Shown here piece by piece: positions 2,789 to 45,542 of a stretch of 64,000 bases of DNA. Both the position numbers and the translations under genes were made by a program. Every line of letters begins with the position of its first letter. Position 1 is the first letter of the stretch. This stretch comes from Candidatus Moraniibacteriota bacterium (GTDB taxonomy: Bacteria > Patescibacteriota > Minisyncoccia > Moranbacterales > UBA1568), in contig JAUSGT010000002.1 of NCBI GenBank assembly GCA_030648835.1, positions 200,081-264,080 of the forward strand. Reading direction: 5' to 3'. Below the pieces are notes generated by a model that did no database searches, had not been told where the DNA came from, and saw only the letters and a list, made by a program, of their open reading frames with translations.

Positions 2789-3010
2789 ATGCAAAAAATT
2801 TCCGTGACTATCGTTCCGCGGTCGGGGAAAAATAGTGTCGAAAAAACTGGAGAACATTCGTATCGCGTACACGTGACAGCCATTGCCGCTGAAAATCAGG
2901 CGAACCAGAAATTGATCAAAGTGTTGGCAAAGTATTTTTCCGTCGCGCCCAGCCTCCTGACGATTGTTTCCGGGGCGCGGAGCCGGAAAAAAATCATAGA
3001 GACTTTGTAG
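2789..3010 (+). CDS. DUF167 (YggU-like) small protein
   Basis: 73-aa ORF whose length and composition fit the UPF0235/YggU family. It lies between two MITE-A copies. Confidence 0.55.
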   Translation: MQKISVTIVPRSGKNSVEKTGEHSYRVHVTAIAAENQANQKLIKVLAKYFSVAPSLLTIVSGARSRKKIIETL

Positions 3011-39591: not shown

Positions 39592-39762
39592 TTTACAAAA
39601 CTTTCTTTTTTCATTCATCGTATTTCCCGAACACTTCTGACTCACTCTGTCGAACAGGGAGCTGTCCTGTCGAGACCATCCGTCACGCTCGACTGTTACC
39701 GACTCGCTCGTCACAAATGTTACCGATAAATACGAGGTGAAGAAAAAAGGAGTCTTTGTAAA
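39592..39762. mobile_element. MITE-like repeat family A, copy 3 (lacks the central hairpin segment)
   Basis: Core cgaacacttctgactcactctgtcgaacagggagctgtcctgtcgagacc...gtcacaaatgttaccg bracketed by an imperfect ~38-bp inverted repeat. Sits immediately 3' of gdhA. Confidence 0.6.
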
Positions 39763-39790
39763 AAGAGGTAACTGTTTTAATTTCAAAATT

Positions 39791-40705
39791 ATGTACGATG
39801 TGATAATTATTGGTGGAGGACCGGGAGGAGTGGCAGCCGGAGTGTACGTAGCGCGCAAGCAATTGAAAACGCTGTTTATCACGGAGCATTTTCAAAGTCA
39901 ATCGGCGGTGTCGGCGAGTATTGAGAACTGGATCGGCACTCTCTCGATCACAGGGTGGGAGTTTGCGGGGATGCTCGAAAAGCATTTGCGGGCGCAGGAG
40001 GGGATTGAAATTGTTACGGAAGTGCGGGCGACCGCTGTTTTGGGAAAAGATGGTCATTACGTAGTGAAGACAACTGACAACAAAGAATACGAGACAAAAA
40101 CGATCATTATCGCGGCTGGTGGCCGACATCGTCATCTCGATATCCCCGGCGAAGAGAAGTTCAAGGGCAAGGGAGTTGTCTATTGTTCGACGTGTGATGC
40201 GCCGTTCTTTCGCGGTAAGTCAGTGGCTGTGGTGGGTGGCGGCAATGCGGGGTTGGAAGCTGTGGAGGACTTGTTACCGTACGCATCCGCAATCACGCTT
40301 TTGGTGCGCTCTGGTGTTCTCAAGGGTGATCCGGTGACGCAAGAAAAAGTTTTGGCGTCGGAAAAAGTAAAAGTGATGTACAATGTTTTGCCACAAGCGG
40401 TGTTGGGTGAGACAAATGTGGTCGGGCTGACATATAAAGACGCAAAGACCGGTGAAGAAAAAACATTACCGCTCGACGGTGTGTTTGTGGAAATTGGGAT
40501 GGTACCCAACACTGAATTCGTGAAAGATTTGCTCGACCTCAATCCGCGCGGAGAAATTATTCTTGACCATCGGACCAAGGCAACGTCCAAGCCGGGAATT
40601 TTCGCGACCGGTGACGCCACCGACGCCCCATATAAACAGAACAATATTTCCGCTGGTGATGGAGTAGTCGCCGCCTTGTCCGTGTATGATTACTTGCGCA
40701 GATAG
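39791..40705 (+). CDS. trxB: Thioredoxin reductase
   Basis: YDVIIIGGGPGG FAD motif and CSTCDAPFF redox CxxC. Start at the internal ATG. Confidence 0.9.
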   Translation: MYDVIIIGGGPGGVAAGVYVARKQLKTLFITEHFQSQSAVSASIENWIGTLSITGWEFAGMLEKHLRAQEGIEIVTEVRATAVLGKDGHYVVKTTDNKEYETKTIIIAAGGRHRHLDIPGEEKFKGKGVVYCSTCDAPFFRGKSVAVVGGGNAGLEAVEDLLPYASAITLLVRSGVLKGDPVTQEKVLASEKVKVMYNVLPQAVLGETNVVGLTYKDAKTGEEKTLPLDGVFVEIGMVPNTEFVKDLLDLNPRGEIILDHRTKATSKPGIFATGDATDAPYKQNNISAGDGVVAALSVYDYLRR

Positions 40706-40757
40706 AAGAGCTAACGCAATTAGCCGGATAGATTATAGAAGAGGCTGTTTTCTGAAA

Positions 40758-40782
40758 AAATGCTTTGTTTGAAGCATTTTTT
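40758..40782 (+). terminator. Rho-independent terminator after trxB (aaatgctt...aagcattt + T-run)
   Basis: 8-bp stem followed by ttttt. Confidence 0.5.
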
Positions 40783-40793
40783 ATGATTTGCTC

Positions 40794-40822
40794 TGGACAA
40801 AATTAACAAAAAGGTGTATACT
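40794..40822 (+). promoter_or_regulatory. Sigma70 promoter TGGACA-17-TATACT upstream of the DGR target gene
   Basis: Good hexamers at 17-nt spacing. A 5' UTR of about 150 nt follows, with a perfect 15-bp inverted repeat (ttttgccatagcgaa/ttcgctatggcaaaa). Confidence 0.5.
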
Positions 40823-40979
40823 AAGCGGTTCATTAAAAATTCATACTTTTGCCATAGCGAAGAGACTTTTCACATTTTTGGAAGCAAGGCTTCCAAAAAG
40901 AGGTGTTGTGGAAATTTTTTCGCTATGGCAAACTCGAAGACTCGAGAGCCCGCTGGCGTGTATCTGAAAGGAACAGACC

Positions 40980-41798
40980 ATGAATACTCATGGAACAGAC
41001 CGCTCGGTACCGACTATGCAACAGGTGAAGCAGCTGGGGATTTTACTTGGATTCATCCTGGAAATTGTGACCAGGATCGTTACACGCTATTTCTTCGCCT
41101 TGAACTCTGACGAAGCGAAGGCTACGCTCCAGAACAAAGGAGCCCTTTCCAAGAAAATCAAGGTTGCGCTTGCGCCGGTGTTTATGATGGCAGTCGATGA
41201 ATATGCTGCCCAACGAACGTATTGGGAAGGCATCTATCTCACTCACTACGGCATGGCTGCGGATTTCGGCGAAGTAACGGTGCCGGAGAAACCGACAGTC
41301 GGCAAGTGGCGCCTCATTTTCATTCTGAAGGGATTGACGATGAATCACGCGGCGGCCATGTACCGAAAAATTCTTGCGGCCATCGATCCACCGTGGCAAC
41401 TGGTACAGTATATCGATGATTTGGACGCGCAGATTCCTTACAACATTCGTACTTCGGCAGAATCCTATGCTCTTTGGGTACGGGATGGGCAAGAGGCTGA
41501 CGAGGAATTTCGTGCTCAAACGACCAGCCAAGCCGATCCGAATCAATTGATTGGTGTCACGCCGCTCGAGCGTCTCGTTCATGGAGCAGCCCATTTTGTT
41601 GAAACCAAACAACACCTCGACGAGAAAGGGATTACTATCTGTTCAGGTTCGCGCAATGCGGATGGCTGCGTGCCTTGCGTGTGCTCGTATCCGGACAGTC
41701 GCGAGGTGTGCGTGTTTTGGTACAATCTGGGCTATTCGTTTTCCGCTGGCGGTGTCCGTCGAACAGTAGCGCTGCCGCAGGCGGCGCAGACAGCTTAA
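40980..41798 (+). CDS. DGR target protein (variable C-terminal ligand-binding region)
   Basis: 272-aa ORF whose last ~40 codons are the VR (SRNADGCVPCVCSYPDSREVCVFWYNLGYSFSAGGVRR). N-terminal hydrophobic segment. Confidence 0.75.
   Translation: MNTHGTDRSVPTMQQVKQLGILLGFILEIVTRIVTRYFFALNSDEAKATLQNKGALSKKIKVALAPVFMMAVDEYAAQRTYWEGIYLTHYGMAADFGEVTVPEKPTVGKWRLIFILKGLTMNHAAAMYRKILAAIDPPWQLVQYIDDLDAQIPYNIRTSAESYALWVRDGQEADEEFRAQTTSQADPNQLIGVTPLERLVHGAAHFVETKQHLDEKGITICSGSRNADGCVPCVCSYPDSREVCVFWYNLGYSFSAGGVRRTVALPQAAQTA
41645..41766 (+). repeat. DGR variable repeat (VR)
   Basis: 122 bp that differs from the TR at 16 positions, all where the TR has A and the VR has T or G. Confidence 0.8.
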
Positions 41799-42106
41799 CC
41801 TCGATTCTCAACTCTTTTTCTCTTTTTTCCCCGCTGTGCGCGTGCGCGCAGCGGGCTTTTGTTTTTGTCTTTTTCCATCCTTTTCTCGAAAGCTTTGAGA
41901 AGTTGTTGTATACTACAGAAGGTTGTTAAGCCAGTCTTGCTTGGGCAAGATGATGGTTTGCCAAGAACTGAAACTGCCTGTGAGTATTTACGCATAGATT
42001 TTTCATGGTAGGAAATGATGCGACACAGCGCTCGTGACCACGAGGAACACAGATGCTCTGGCGACAGAGGTTCGGTGATAGGGATGGATACTCACAGTAA
42101 AGATGG

Positions 42107-42228
42107 AGGTTCGCGCAATGCGGATGGCAACGTGCCTTACGTGAACTCGAATCCGGACAATCGCAAGGTGAACGTGAATTGGTACAATCTGGACAATTCG
42201 AATTCCGCTGGCGGTGTCCGTCGAGAAG
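42107..42228 (+). repeat. DGR template repeat (TR)
   Basis: Non-coding cognate of the VR with A at all 16 variable positions, rich in AAC/AAT codon-equivalents. The overlapping ORF 42015-42281 is probably not a gene. Confidence 0.8.
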
Positions 42229-42249
42229 TTTCAACACAAGAACATCCCG

Positions 42250-42624
42250 CTAGAGTGCGGGATTTTGTGTCAGGTATTTGATCCAACCATTCGTCATTTT
42301 GGAAGTTTCAACGAGGAGAGCAGCTACCTCGATGTATGATTTTTCAGGGATGACCTTTTGTTCATATTCTATGCGCACCAGGTGTTTCAGGATTTCCAGA
42401 GAGACGCGTACATGCTCGAGTATTTCTCGTTTCTGATATTTCTGCGTGAGCGAGGCGCGAAGGATACCGCTCATGGTTTCTAGCGTGAGATGCTCAATAA
42501 CCTGGTGGATACCGAGTTTATCTCGTTTGGGAATCTTGTGTCCAATTTGGTACAGAGTGGCATATACTTGTTTGATACTATGAACAATCGAAATATCATT
42601 ACTCCGAAGGGGGGGGGGTAACAC
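42250..42624 (-). CDS. avd: Avd-like accessory variability determinant (four-helix-bundle family)
   Basis: 124-aa helical protein between the TR and the RT. Size and placement are typical of DGR Avd, though it is divergently oriented. The N-terminal PPP is encoded by a C10 tract. Confidence 0.55.
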   Translation of the reverse strand: MLPPPLRSNDISIVHSIKQVYATLYQIGHKIPKRDKLGIHQVIEHLTLETMSGILRASLTQKYQKREILEHVRVSLEILKHLVRIEYEQKVIPEKSYIEVAALLVETSKMTNGWIKYLTQNPAL

Positions 42625-42715
42625 TAGAGGAAATTTTTTTCATGATATTATCAGTGTAGCAAATCTTCTCGCCGCTTGGAAAGAGTTTCGGAAGGGAAAA
42701 AGGAAAAAAGGTGAT

Positions 42716-43672
42716 GTGGCTTTGTTTGAATTTCAACTGGAAGACAACTTACTGCAACTGCATCAAGAGCTGGCTTCCCAGACCTACAGGCACGGTCCCT
42801 ACGAAGGTTTTTATGTTTCTGATCCCAAGTTGAGGCACATTCACAAAGCTAGTGTGCGCGATCGAATTCTGCATCAAGCGATTTTCCGTGTGCTATATCC
42901 GATTTTTGACGCGCATTTTATTTATGATTCGTATTCATCGCGCGTTTCCAAGGGTACCCACTTTGGCGTGAAGCGCCTCTTGCAAGCCTGTCGCAAAGTA
43001 AGCGAGAATTGGAAAGCTCCGGCGTACGCGCTGAAATGTGATATACGCAGGTTTTTTGATTCGATAGATCATGCAATTTTGCGCAAGCTCGTCGTAAAGA
43101 AAATTACCGACCATAAGACGCTATGGTTGATCGATATCATTTTTGCAAGCTTTGAGAAAGAAAAAGGGAAAGGACTGCCGCTCGGAAATGTCACCAGCCA
43201 GCTTTTTGCCAATATCTATCTCAATGAGCTGGATCAATTCGCGAAACATACATTGAAGGCGAGGCATTACTTCCGTTATTGCGATGATTTTATTATTGTT
43301 CACCGCAATCGGATTTTTCTTGAAGAAGCATTGGTAAAAATAAGAGCCTTTGTTTCTGAAACATTGTTTTTGGAACTGCATCCTTATAAAGTGGAAATCC
43401 GCAAAGTCAGTCAGGGAATCGATTTTCTGGGCTATGTCATTTTGCCACACCGGACAGTCGTGCGGATGGCTACCAAGAGCCGTCTACTACGAAAGTTAAA
43501 CGATGCCCGAAAAAACTTTCGGACCGGGAAGATAACAGGAGAGACGTTTGGAAGTATTATACATTCTTACCTCGGCGTACTTTTACACTCACGGAACCGG
43601 AGAATAAGAAGATGGGTATGGAAGTTACGCGAGTTGACACAAAGCGGAGATAAAAATGTAAAGTGGCGGTGA
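42716..43672 (+). CDS. DGR reverse transcriptase
   Basis: RT motifs DIRRFFDSIDH (A), LPLGNVTSQLFANIYLNELD (DGR-type motif 4/B) and RYCDDFII (YxDD). Conserved N-terminal residues continue in frame upstream to about 42647 without a canonical start codon. Confidence 0.85.
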   Translation: MALFEFQLEDNLLQLHQELASQTYRHGPYEGFYVSDPKLRHIHKASVRDRILHQAIFRVLYPIFDAHFIYDSYSSRVSKGTHFGVKRLLQACRKVSENWKAPAYALKCDIRRFFDSIDHAILRKLVVKKITDHKTLWLIDIIFASFEKEKGKGLPLGNVTSQLFANIYLNELDQFAKHTLKARHYFRYCDDFIIVHRNRIFLEEALVKIRAFVSETLFLELHPYKVEIRKVSQGIDFLGYVILPHRTVVRMATKSRLLRKLNDARKNFRTGKITGETFGSIIHSYLGVLLHSRNRRIRRWVWKLRELTQSGDKNVKWR

Positions 43673-43682
43673 TTGACGAGAT

Positions 43683-43711
43683 GGTAAAAACGTGCTACAA
43701 TGGGTGTACAA
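43683..43711 (+). promoter_or_regulatory. Sigma70 promoter TTGACG-17-TACAAT
   Basis: Near-consensus hexamers immediately after the RT stop. Confidence 0.5.
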
Positions 43712-43717
43712 GTTTGA

Positions 43718-43971
43718 GGCGGGCCGCCACGACTGGGTCGGGCGAGCCTCGCCAAAACGGCGGGAGTTTCATGGGTGAAACGTCCGTTTTTCTTTTTCTA
43801 GGAAGGTCGGCAATGAAAATTGTTACTCTCCCTAGGGGAAATGTTCATTAAAAACAAAAACCAAAACAAAAAACAAAAACCTTTGTTTTCACCAAAAACA
43901 AGGCAAGTTCTCTTGCCTTGGCCTCTCGAAAAAGAGGCCAGATAGGCCGCTAACTCTTTAGCGGTCTTTTT
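43718..43971 (+). ncRNA. Candidate non-coding or leader transcript (GC-rich structured 5' part, CA-rich tract, terminator)
   Basis: Bounded by a promoter and a terminator hairpin (ccgctaa...tagcgg + T-run). Contains an (AAAAC)n-like tract. Only very short ORFs. Confidence 0.3.
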
Positions 43972-44011
43972 ATTGATTTAAAGCCTGTTCTCGGCTATAC
44001 TGGGCAATAAG

Positions 44012-44141
44012 CCCGGTAGTAGAACTTCGAAAGTTTTGGTATAGTAACGATATCTTCGGTATTCCTGCAATATGGGCTTTGTTGAAGCAAAAAATATAAT
44101 TCTTTTTTAAAACTTCGTTTGTTCGAAGTTTCACTACCGGG
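44012..44141. repeat. Inverted 20-mer pair R1/R2 (cccggtagtagaacttcgaa ... ttcgaagtttcactaccggg) abutting the murA start codon
   Basis: 18/20 complementary arms about 90 bp apart. The right arm ends 1 nt before the murA ATG. Confidence 0.55.
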
Positions 44142-44142
44142 T

Positions 44143-45405
44143 ATGGAAGTTTTTGAAATCGAGGGCGGAAAACGGCTCAAAGGACGGATTGCTGTTTCGG
44201 GACTGAAGAATGCCGCAACGCCCATTATTGCCGCGACGCTTCTCTCCAAAGAACCATGCGTCTTGAAAAATATCCCTCGTATCGAGGATGTTTTTCGCAT
44301 GCTGGAAATCTTAGAGAGCATGGGAGCGACAGCCAGGTGGCAGGGGCGGTCAACGGTGATGATCGATACGCGCGCGGTTGATCCAAAAAAAATAGACCAG
44401 GACAAAGTCAAGCGCTTACGTTCGTCGATTTTTCTTCTGGGAGCTTTAGCCGGTCGTTTTGAAAAATTTCATTTGCGGCAACCCGGCGGGTGTGTCATCG
44501 GCGCGCGTCCGGTAGAAACGCACATTGATGCTTTGACAAAACTGGGAGTGAAGATTGTCTCGGATGAAAAAGGGTATGCCGTCGATGCCGGAGGGAGGCA
44601 GAGTGCCAACATAGTGCTCAAAGAGTTTTCCGTGACAGCGACGGAGAATGCGATGCTTTTGGCCGCGACGCTTCCCGGAGTTACACAGATAAAAATTGCC
44701 GCTTGTGAACCGCACGTCGAAGATCTTGGACATTTTCTCGAAAAGATGGGCGCGCGGATCGAAGGACTGGGAACCCATACGCTTCGGATAACGGGCAAGA
44801 AACGACTCATCGGTGTGACACATACGATCGTTCCCGATCACAACGAGGCCGCGACATTTCTCATTCTTGGCGCGGCTACCGGAAGCGAAATCGCTGTCGT
44901 CAACGCTCGGAAAGAACACTTGGATATTGTTCTTGAGAAATTGGAGGAGTTTGGGGTTCGTTTCACGGTAAAGAAAAATGAGATTACGGTGCATCCCGCC
45001 AAAAAATTACGAGCTGTTTCAAAAGTCGACACCCGCACGTATCCCGGAGTTCCTACCGAGACGCAAGCGCTCTTCGGTATGCTCGCGACGCAGGCGGAGG
45101 GGGAGACACTCATTTTTGAAACTTTGTATGAAGGGCGTTTCAACTACATTCCCGAACTGGTGAAGATGGGAGCCAGAGCGACTATTCTCAATCCGCATCA
45201 GGTTATTGTTTCAGGGAAGACGCCACTCAAAGGGACAGTCATAAAGAGTTTTGATTTGCGCGCGGGGGCGACGCTTATTATCGCCGCGCTGGTCGCTCGG
45301 GGGAAGACGATTATCGAAGATATTTATCAGGTGGATCGCGGCTATGAACGTATCGAAGAGCGTCTGCAGAAAATTGGCGCGCGGATACGCCGGGTAGATT
45401 TGTAG
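44143..45405 (+). CDS. murA: UDP-N-acetylglucosamine 1-carboxyvinyltransferase
   Basis: MEVFEIEGGKRLKGRIAVSGLKNAATPIIAA EPSP-synthase-fold N-terminus. Start at the internal ATG. Confidence 0.9.
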   Translation: MEVFEIEGGKRLKGRIAVSGLKNAATPIIAATLLSKEPCVLKNIPRIEDVFRMLEILESMGATARWQGRSTVMIDTRAVDPKKIDQDKVKRLRSSIFLLGALAGRFEKFHLRQPGGCVIGARPVETHIDALTKLGVKIVSDEKGYAVDAGGRQSANIVLKEFSVTATENAMLLAATLPGVTQIKIAACEPHVEDLGHFLEKMGARIEGLGTHTLRITGKKRLIGVTHTIVPDHNEAATFLILGAATGSEIAVVNARKEHLDIVLEKLEEFGVRFTVKKNEITVHPAKKLRAVSKVDTRTYPGVPTETQALFGMLATQAEGETLIFETLYEGRFNYIPELVKMGARATILNPHQVIVSGKTPLKGTVIKSFDLRAGATLIIAALVARGKTIIEDIYQVDRGYERIEERLQKIGARIRRVDL

Positions 45406-45417
45406 AAAAAAGATATG

Positions 45418-45540
45418 CCCGGTAGTAGAATTTCGACCAGGCAATTTCAGGAGTGTATACACTAAGTTTAAACCAGAGGATTAAGAAGTGGCATAAGTTT
45501 CTTTGATGTATTAAATACATTGTCGAAATTTCACTACCGG
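45418..45540. repeat. Inverted 19-mer pair R3/R4 (cccggtagtagaatttcga ... tcgaaatttcactaccggg) abutting the mreB start codon
   Basis: Same architecture as R1/R2, with compensatory C:G to T:A changes in both arms. Confidence 0.55.
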
Positions 45541-45542
45541 GT

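Follow-up and report, generated by a model that had tools for sequence, protein, structure and literature searches.

The window analyzed here, i.e., the whole 64-kb stretch of Candidatus Moraniibacteriota DNA, carries a DGR whose avd and reverse transcriptase (RT) genes diverge from a run of ten guanines. This arrangement raises the question of whether changes in the length of the run could turn the DGR on and off and, if so, which of its genes would be affected. The parts of the element on the target side of avd and RT are as follows.

40980..41798, + strand: DGR target gene, 272 aa, with the variable region (VR) at its 3' end (from the open reading frame [ORF] list and the VR repeat)
41645..41767, + strand: VR, a 123-nt direct repeat with the template region (TR), 85% identical
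41830..41855, unstranded: GC-rich hairpin of 11 bp (9 GC) followed by a T run, directly past the target gene (terminator-like match)
42107..42229, + strand: TR (from the VR/TR repeat comparison)
42244..42263, unstranded: 7-bp hairpin 3' of the TR, overlapping the stop codon of avd (resembles a terminator on either strand)

The element combines the features that define a DGR, namely, a DGR-type RT, an adenine-biased TR/VR pair, a VR at the 3' end of a target ORF, and Avd. Of the 18 mismatches between VR and TR, 17 fall at TR adenines, including all 16 within the core, and this adenine-directed pattern indicates that the DGR has been active in the past. A Pfam search with the product of the target gene (40980..41798) returned no family. 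The hairpin directly past this gene agrees in position with the GC-rich inverted repeat known 3' of DGR VRs, as described in a survey of DGRs (Wu et al. 2018, PMC5758913). The RT matches Pfam RVT_1 (E 2e-21), and its closest solved relative is the Bordetella phage RT, bRT (8ub7; E 2e-45, residues 16-308), in an alignment that takes in the LGNVTSQLFAN motif. On the minus strand, an ORF of 124 aa at 42250-42624, with a GTG start and the N terminus V/M-LPPPL, matches Pfam bAvd (PF22296; E 1e-10), which bears out the Avd-like identity proposed for this gene in the initial annotation. The exact Avd sequence is present at NCBI as a MAG protein named "four helix bundle protein" of Candidatus Moranbacteria bacterium. 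A comparison of window positions 41600-42900 with Rfam gave no credible RNA family. The Logan annotation lists as a gene an 88-aa ORF across the TR (42015-42281, + strand); this ORF is most likely a TR copy of the target C-terminal reading frame and no real gene.

The junction between avd and the RT gene is made up of the following features.

42250..42643, - strand: avd, from a conserved ATG at 42643-42641; a 9-nt tract is needed for the in-frame product of 130 aa
42580..42643, unstranded: antisense overlap of the avd and RT leaders, 64 nt, with the tract in the middle (read from the sequence; geometry and conservation)
42580..43672, + strand: DGR reverse transcriptase gene, from a conserved ATG at 42580; the RT frame proper starts past the tract
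42609..42618, unstranded: G10/C10 homopolymer tract, the frame-setting element (run count and conservation in 108/111 loci)

Read directly from the + strand, positions 42609-42618 are exactly ten consecutive G's. The ten-base run originally reported is thus real, and its end, first placed at 42619, lies one base farther upstream. A count of runs across the whole window found no other G or C run of at least 8 nt, and the expectation for G runs of at least 10 nt in 64 kb under an iid model is 0.12. The tract is therefore a simple repeat that lies inside a reading frame far above chance, as in SSR phase-variable loci. The window population is represented by two assemblies of a single run (SRR13727527) that were made with two different assemblers, and both have G10; the Logan assembly is collinear with window positions 39677-45541 and has the identical tract length.

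The initial annotation placed the tract in a 90-bp spacer between divergent avd and RT genes, at the first codons of an avd gene starting with GTG. This spacer does not exist: the two genes overlap at their 5' ends, and homology to other DGR RTs begins directly past the tract (DIISVANLLAAWKEF...), where the conserved RT N terminus is encoded (..RGNFFHDIISVANLLAAWKEF..). The RT frame has a stop at 42581-42583 and is open from 42584, and positions 42584-42715 contain no ATG, GTG, or TTG in that frame before the GTG at 42716. Without a canonical start before it, GTG 42716 is not the true RT start, and there is no 90-bp spacer. The automatic RT call from this GTG (318 aa) is mis-started, with ~45 N-terminal residues that are homologous to other DGR RTs lying upstream. 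The start codons of the two genes are instead interlocked, each ATG lying antisense to an in-frame CAT codon, for His, in the partner gene. ATG 42580 of the RT gene corresponds to a conserved His codon of avd (..SIVH..), and ATG 42643 of avd corresponds to a conserved His codon of the RT gene (..FFHD..). The tract does lie inside what appears to be a translated avd leader, as first claimed, and its position is the middle of the overlap, so that its length sets the frame of the RT as well as that of Avd.

As assembled, neither gene can be read from its ATG across the tract. Translation from the avd ATG at 42643-42641 (- strand) gives MKKISSSVTPPPSE followed by a stop, and translation from the RT ATG at 42580 gives MNNRNIITPKGGG, ending at the stop TAA (42619-42621) directly after the tract; both ATG-initiated ORFs thus stop after 13 to 14 codons at G10. 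Deleting one G in silico produces a 363-aa RT and a 130-aa Avd, each joined to its ATG. At G10, the sole element that keeps the Avd ORF open is GTG 42624, and the RT is left without a start. The gene that is clearly out of frame in the window is therefore the RT gene and not avd, the gene that had been singled out as affected. GTG 42624 is lineage specific, its position being occupied by ACG, ACT, or AGA in relatives. An avd start downstream of the tract, a finding that had been named as one that would overturn the slippage idea, was sought and rejected: the window contains no in-frame ATG, GTG, or TTG 3' of the tract (just ATT at 42594 and 42588), and the closest relatives also lack one. ATG 42642 was rejected as an RT start, since it is out of frame (MILSV*) and unconserved, with relatives having CAT-AAT at this site. 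In the alignment with bRT, the repaired RT is matched from its residue 16 onward, and the Pfam Avd model starts past the leader; because the leaders are short, N terminal, and outside both conserved cores, Pro or Gly runs of variable length should be tolerated in them.

Shine-Dalgarno sequences are absent before both conserved ATGs. Sequences resembling -10 hexamers lie 9 to 11 nt before both of them, namely, TGnTAnACT for avd (- strand, ~42653-42666) and TATACT for the RT gene (+ strand, 42562-42567), and would fit leaderless mRNAs or mRNAs with very short leaders. However, both sequences lie antisense to conserved protein motifs, so that promoter and coding signals are confounded. Promoter mapping was rejected as evidence, since consensus matches barely exceeded the shuffled expectation (8 versus 4.8).

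Relatives of the locus were fetched by Avd alignment, which yielded 80 loci in GTDB species genomes and a further 42 in metagenomes, each on a contig of the CPR/Patescibacteria type. A phage origin was rejected, as a search of IMG/VR found no relatives. Of these loci, 111 were scorable (Avd 30 to 84% identical), 108 were tract bearing, and 99 were nonredundant; related loci share phylogeny, and counts made on them are not independent of one another. The RT gene is divergent from avd in all 111 scorable loci, with the two homologies starting only tens of nucleotides apart. The initial annotation described an avd gene on the strand opposite to TR and RT as less common. The window locus, with the TR upstream, avd on the reverse strand, and the RT gene downstream, has architecture B3 (TR-(avd)-RT), which accounts for 90% of CPR DGRs according to Wu et al. 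(2018, PMC5758913); a reverse-strand avd is thus the ordinary arrangement in these DGRs.

The tract is conserved at this junction throughout the group. A C run of 6 to 14 nt on the avd strand (mode, 9 to 10) is present in 108 of the 111 loci, and the remaining 494 kb of the related loci contains one other G/C run of at least 8 nt. Two loci (L015 and L073) have no repeat at the junction, and both are in exact register. In another locus (L014), ~11 copies of the 5-nt repeat CCGGT replace the homopolymer (~2950-3010), and the array is one unit out of frame. The occurrence of a pentamer at the same spot indicates that the kept feature is a mutable repeat and not poly(C) as such. In another relative (L003; ~2950-3000), a (TC)n array adjoins a C9 run. 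We considered whether the run merely encodes a conserved protein motif. The alignment does contain a conserved PPP, but the DNA run is all C in ~100 loci; an all-C run of 6 to 14 nt, in differing frames, reflects a codon choice that the protein does not explain.

To compare frame states, we defined the offset of a locus as the departure, modulo 3, of its avd and RT frames from exact antisense register. Offsets of 0, 1, and 2 extra nucleotides were found in 18, 59, and 31 of the 108 tract-bearing loci, respectively, and in 18, 54, and 27 of the 99 nonredundant loci, 81 of which are thus out of frame. The offset grows with tract length, and in 88/108 loci, subtracting it from the length leaves 8 or 9. 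When the surplus C's were removed in silico, a full-length avd was obtained in 88/88 out-of-frame loci; of the 76 loci in which the RT gene is complete, 70 gave an RT of at least 300 aa. Since trimming the tract repairs both ORFs, the tract is essentially the only lesion. The frame thus tracks tract length in relatives, as expected if a slip-prone tract switches avd; the part of the original proposal that requires revision is its restriction to avd, because the same tract sets the frame of the RT gene.

Several lines of evidence point to translation of both leaders. An avd ATG in register, with its frame open to the tract, is found in 108/108 loci, and the corresponding RT ATG is found in 106/108. 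In all 18 loci that are in register, avd and RT can each be read as a full ORF from an ATG. Among the 90 out-of-register loci, an in-frame canonical start is available for avd in 20 and for the RT gene in 42. The codons TTA, CTA, and TCA, the complements of which are stops, occur at none of the 941 avd codons and none of the 328 RT codons in the overlap, a count that is partly conditioned on an open ATG, a condition that holds in 106 to 108 of the 108 loci. Outside the overlap, they make up 5.6% of avd codons and 4.2% of RT codons. In the rest of avd, TTA is used for Leu 20% of the time and TCA for Ser 26% of the time; both are at zero in the overlap. Tract length also depends on the length required by the flank class (Fisher p 2e-4), which indicates that the reading frame matters. 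In some relatives (among L010, L013, L096, L097, and L139-L142), the RT leader is ATGAATGATGG, with ATGs in two frames, and L010 and L013, together with their duplicates L096 and L097, have, on the avd strand, a GTG or ATG immediately 5' of the tract. To judge from these codons, both genes may be translatable at two of the three tract-length classes in such loci.

Changes in tract length have also occurred in nature. Four populations contain tracts that differ in length only, with matching flanks (in P0048, a matching RT side), as in SSR phase-variable loci. In one, L104 and L107 have a tract of 10 and L106 has a tract of 9, and in another, L112 has 9 and L114 has 10; in both cases, 400 nt of flanking sequence on each side is identical. 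In population P0078, C9 is found in five assemblies and C10 in one, with zero mismatches in 816 + 1,262 nt; C10 is the in-frame form, in which the RT is called at 350 aa. In population P0048, C9 is found in five assemblies and C8 in two; C9 is the in-frame form, in which the RT is called from the register ATG, and the C9 and C8 forms match without mismatch over 540 to 690 nt on the RT side, with 4 and 10 mismatches on the avd side. P0048 and P0078 thus each pair an in-frame with an out-of-frame form, so that the toggling of intact and truncated ORFs by tract length that was obtained in silico has natural ON and OFF counterparts in these two populations. A further pair (L058 and L062) was considered as a possible compensating indel that keeps the state with one extra nucleotide, but the two loci differ by three substitutions at the tract end and by no indel. 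Within clusters of 90% identity, called Avd lengths range from 74 to 236 aa, and this spread is a by-product of tract variation.

We interpret the tract as a phase switch that works by slipped-strand changes and controls Avd and RT jointly, and through them the activity of a CPR-type DGR, a reading to which we assign a probability of roughly 0.6. In the anatomy that underlies this mechanism, avd and RT lie head to head with their first ~21 codons overlapping on opposite strands and the homopolymer in the middle. Because both ORFs cross the tract and the start codons stand in antisense register, one length class puts both genes in frame. A tract of 9 (or 9 +/- 3) places Avd and RT in frame at the window locus, and the other classes cut both at ~13 to 14 codons. 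Replication slippage by +/-1 nt would then produce heritable and reversible ON/OFF switching of mutagenic retrohoming in a fraction of cells. The window copy (G10) would represent an RT-off state in which the lineage-specific GTG alone leaves the Avd ORF open. We infer that both register ATGs are the starts in use, that the switch flips often and in both directions, and that the frame governs how much protein is made. With slightly less assurance, and only somewhat above even odds, we further propose that the usual CPR/Patescibacteria DGR has a built-in stochastic master switch by which targeted protein mutagenesis itself is phase variable, i.e., a second-order contingency, with most populations OFF and one slip from ON.

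Two features qualify this switch. First, a simple unbiased switch does not predict that 81/99 loci are out of frame or that the state with one extra nucleotide is in excess; under the switch model, this excess needs selection against ON together with an insertion bias, or else an RNA-level mechanism. Second, alternative in-frame GTG, TTG, or ATG codons near the tract at some OFF loci imply that OFF may be leaky or gene specific, and avd in the window, with GTG 42624, is an example of an OFF-state gene with an alternative start. The lack of a Shine-Dalgarno sequence at both ATGs also weighs against the switch, and homopolymer assembly errors are possible for individual contigs.

The first of these features is also what favors programmed recoding, i.e., RNA polymerase slippage or a ribosomal +1 shift on CCC-C or GGG-G that would yield low levels of full-length Avd and RT while the DNA length drifts. 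The state with one extra nucleotide dominates the nonredundant loci (54/99; chi-square p 2e-5), and it follows the flank class, with flanks requiring 9 having a modal tract of 10 and flanks requiring 8 having a modal tract of 9. In the frame with one extra G, a stop lies within 12 nt past the tract in the RT sense in 82/108 loci and in the avd sense in just 28/108. The window itself has GGG-TAA directly at the tract end in the RT sense, resembling shifty-stop +1 sites such as that of prfB, and a joint throttling of both genes would be apt for a costly mutator. However, programmed frameshifting should leave a conserved offset across all members, and here offsets 0, 1, and 2 all occur: 18 loci are in register, 27 would have to be corrected in the other direction, and L015 and L073, which lack the repeat, are in frame. 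Two populations contain ON and OFF forms side by side, and the 5-nt repeat of L014 would not slip likewise for a ribosome or polymerase. The sites of transcriptional slippage known from bacteria consist of A/T runs whose length is fixed. Taken together, the occurrence of three different offsets, the polymorphism between ON and OFF, the in-frame loci that lack a repeat, and the pentamer argue against a fixed recoding signal, and we consider recoding unlikely as the main control. The excess of the +1 state and the close RT-sense stop fit a programmed +1 event and selection against ON with a G/C-tract insertion bias equally well, and whether expression is controlled by slippage in the DNA or by slippage of transcript or ribosome is the main uncertainty of our interpretation.

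The remaining explanations are contradicted by the data. The tract might be untranslated, lying in a shared 5' untranslated region or promoter where its length tunes transcription or mRNA structure, with noncanonical starts downstream. Frames appear scrambled in 83% of the loci, as if frame were irrelevant; a promoter-like TTGATA-16-TATCAT at 42572-42599 would start an RT transcript approximately at the tract; and GGAG stands 7 nt before the in-frame ATT 42594 on the avd strand. This model is nevertheless very improbable, since in most loci the stretch from the tract to the conserved core, in avd as in the RT gene, lacks a canonical start in frame, and the near-cognate codons are unconserved. 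It also fails to account for the absence of antisense-stop codons from the 941 + 328 overlap codons, the register ATGs in 106 to 108 of 108 loci, the link between tract length and flank frame class, and the exact register of the repeat-free loci. We give still less credence to a switch of avd alone from GTG 42624, with the RT as a separate gene starting at GTG 42716 past a 90-bp spacer. This GTG is in frame at G10 and is the annotated start in the NCBI record, and the ORF listing puts the RT start at 42716, but homology of the RT, including that to bRT, starts directly past the tract, ~25 codons upstream of 42716. The GTG is unconserved, an in-frame canonical avd start is present in just 20 of 90 out-of-frame loci, and stops are kept out of the antisense frames to either side of the tract. 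Least plausible of all is that the frameshifts are pseudogenizing lesions in dying DGRs or homopolymer sequencing or assembly errors, for although homopolymers are error prone, some assemblies derive from long reads, and five RT genes are still truncated after tract repair, the tract is the single lesion in nearly all loci, is kept at one position clade-wide and is virtually absent elsewhere, is agreed upon by two different assemblers for the window, and is C9 in five independent assemblies in each of two populations, and 83% frameshifts are beyond the reach of error rates.

Among known systems, the proposed switch resembles the contingency loci with G/C tracts in Campylobacter jejuni, Neisseria, and Haemophilus (e.g., PMC6321876 and PMC5084427), which share with it a run of ~8 to 11 nt in the 5' coding part, length differences between near-identical genomes, a majority of copies out of frame within a given genome, and ON/OFF switching by +/-1 nt. 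It differs from them in three respects: (i) one tract in an antisense overlap frames two divergent genes; (ii) the function controlled is a targeted hypermutation machine, in place of a surface structure or a restriction-modification enzyme; and (iii) the hosts are uncultivated CPR/Patescibacteria. Phasevarions (PMC5149525) are similar in that a repeat in an enzyme gene acts as a population switch with system-wide effect; they switch the expression of a regulon via DNA methyltransferases, whereas here the consequence would be that diversification of a target protein is either ongoing or absent. The DGR of Bordetella phage BPP-1 (mtd-avd-TR-brt) is alike in its 3' VR target, adenine-specific TR, bAvd-family Avd, and RT, but its avd, TR, and brt are co-oriented and it has no repeat tract, whereas avd is reversed and a tract is present here. 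In Haemophilus influenzae, a TA repeat between the divergent promoters of hifA and hifB switches both fimbrial genes through the -35/-10 spacing. That locus likewise has one repeat controlling two divergent genes; here the repeat lies inside both frames and would act through the frame.

Within the literature on CPR DGRs, the gene order and reverse-strand avd of B3 elements are exactly as here, and the survey that defined B3 (Wu et al. 2018, PMC5758913) makes no mention of a homopolymer or of overlapping avd and RT genes. Our full-text literature search, the scope of which excluded the CPR survey of Paul et al. 2017, found no DGR paper with a homopolymer, a phase-variable avd or RT gene, or an avd/RT overlap. 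What appears to be new is the combination, in which a tract conserved across a clade lies where the two genes of a targeted mutator overlap antisense at their 5' ends and gates the pair; G/C-tract phase variation and DGRs are individually well known. One repeat serving two genes in an antisense 5' overlap is an unusual gene architecture by itself. A recent preprint on a large study (10.1101/2024.11.15.621889) states that the signals and regulation of mutagenic retrohoming "await discovery" and expects bursts of mutagenesis between periods of quiescence. If the switch is true, it would provide a concrete and sequence-readable mechanism for such burst/quiescence behavior in CPR, where DGRs are most abundant, and it speaks to the question of how cells restrain DGRs. 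There are also practical consequences: gene callers systematically mis-start or truncate avd and RT at such loci, and surveys that demand intact RT ORFs would undercount or misscore these DGRs.

A variant arrangement was observed in one population (P0031; L125-L131), in which an Avd homologue follows an S1-domain gene and both an upstream RT and the C tract are missing. Approximately 80 nt upstream of avd, this population has a (TC) repeat that differs by one unit between assemblies, and four independent assemblies end at one and the same point, 98 nt upstream of avd.
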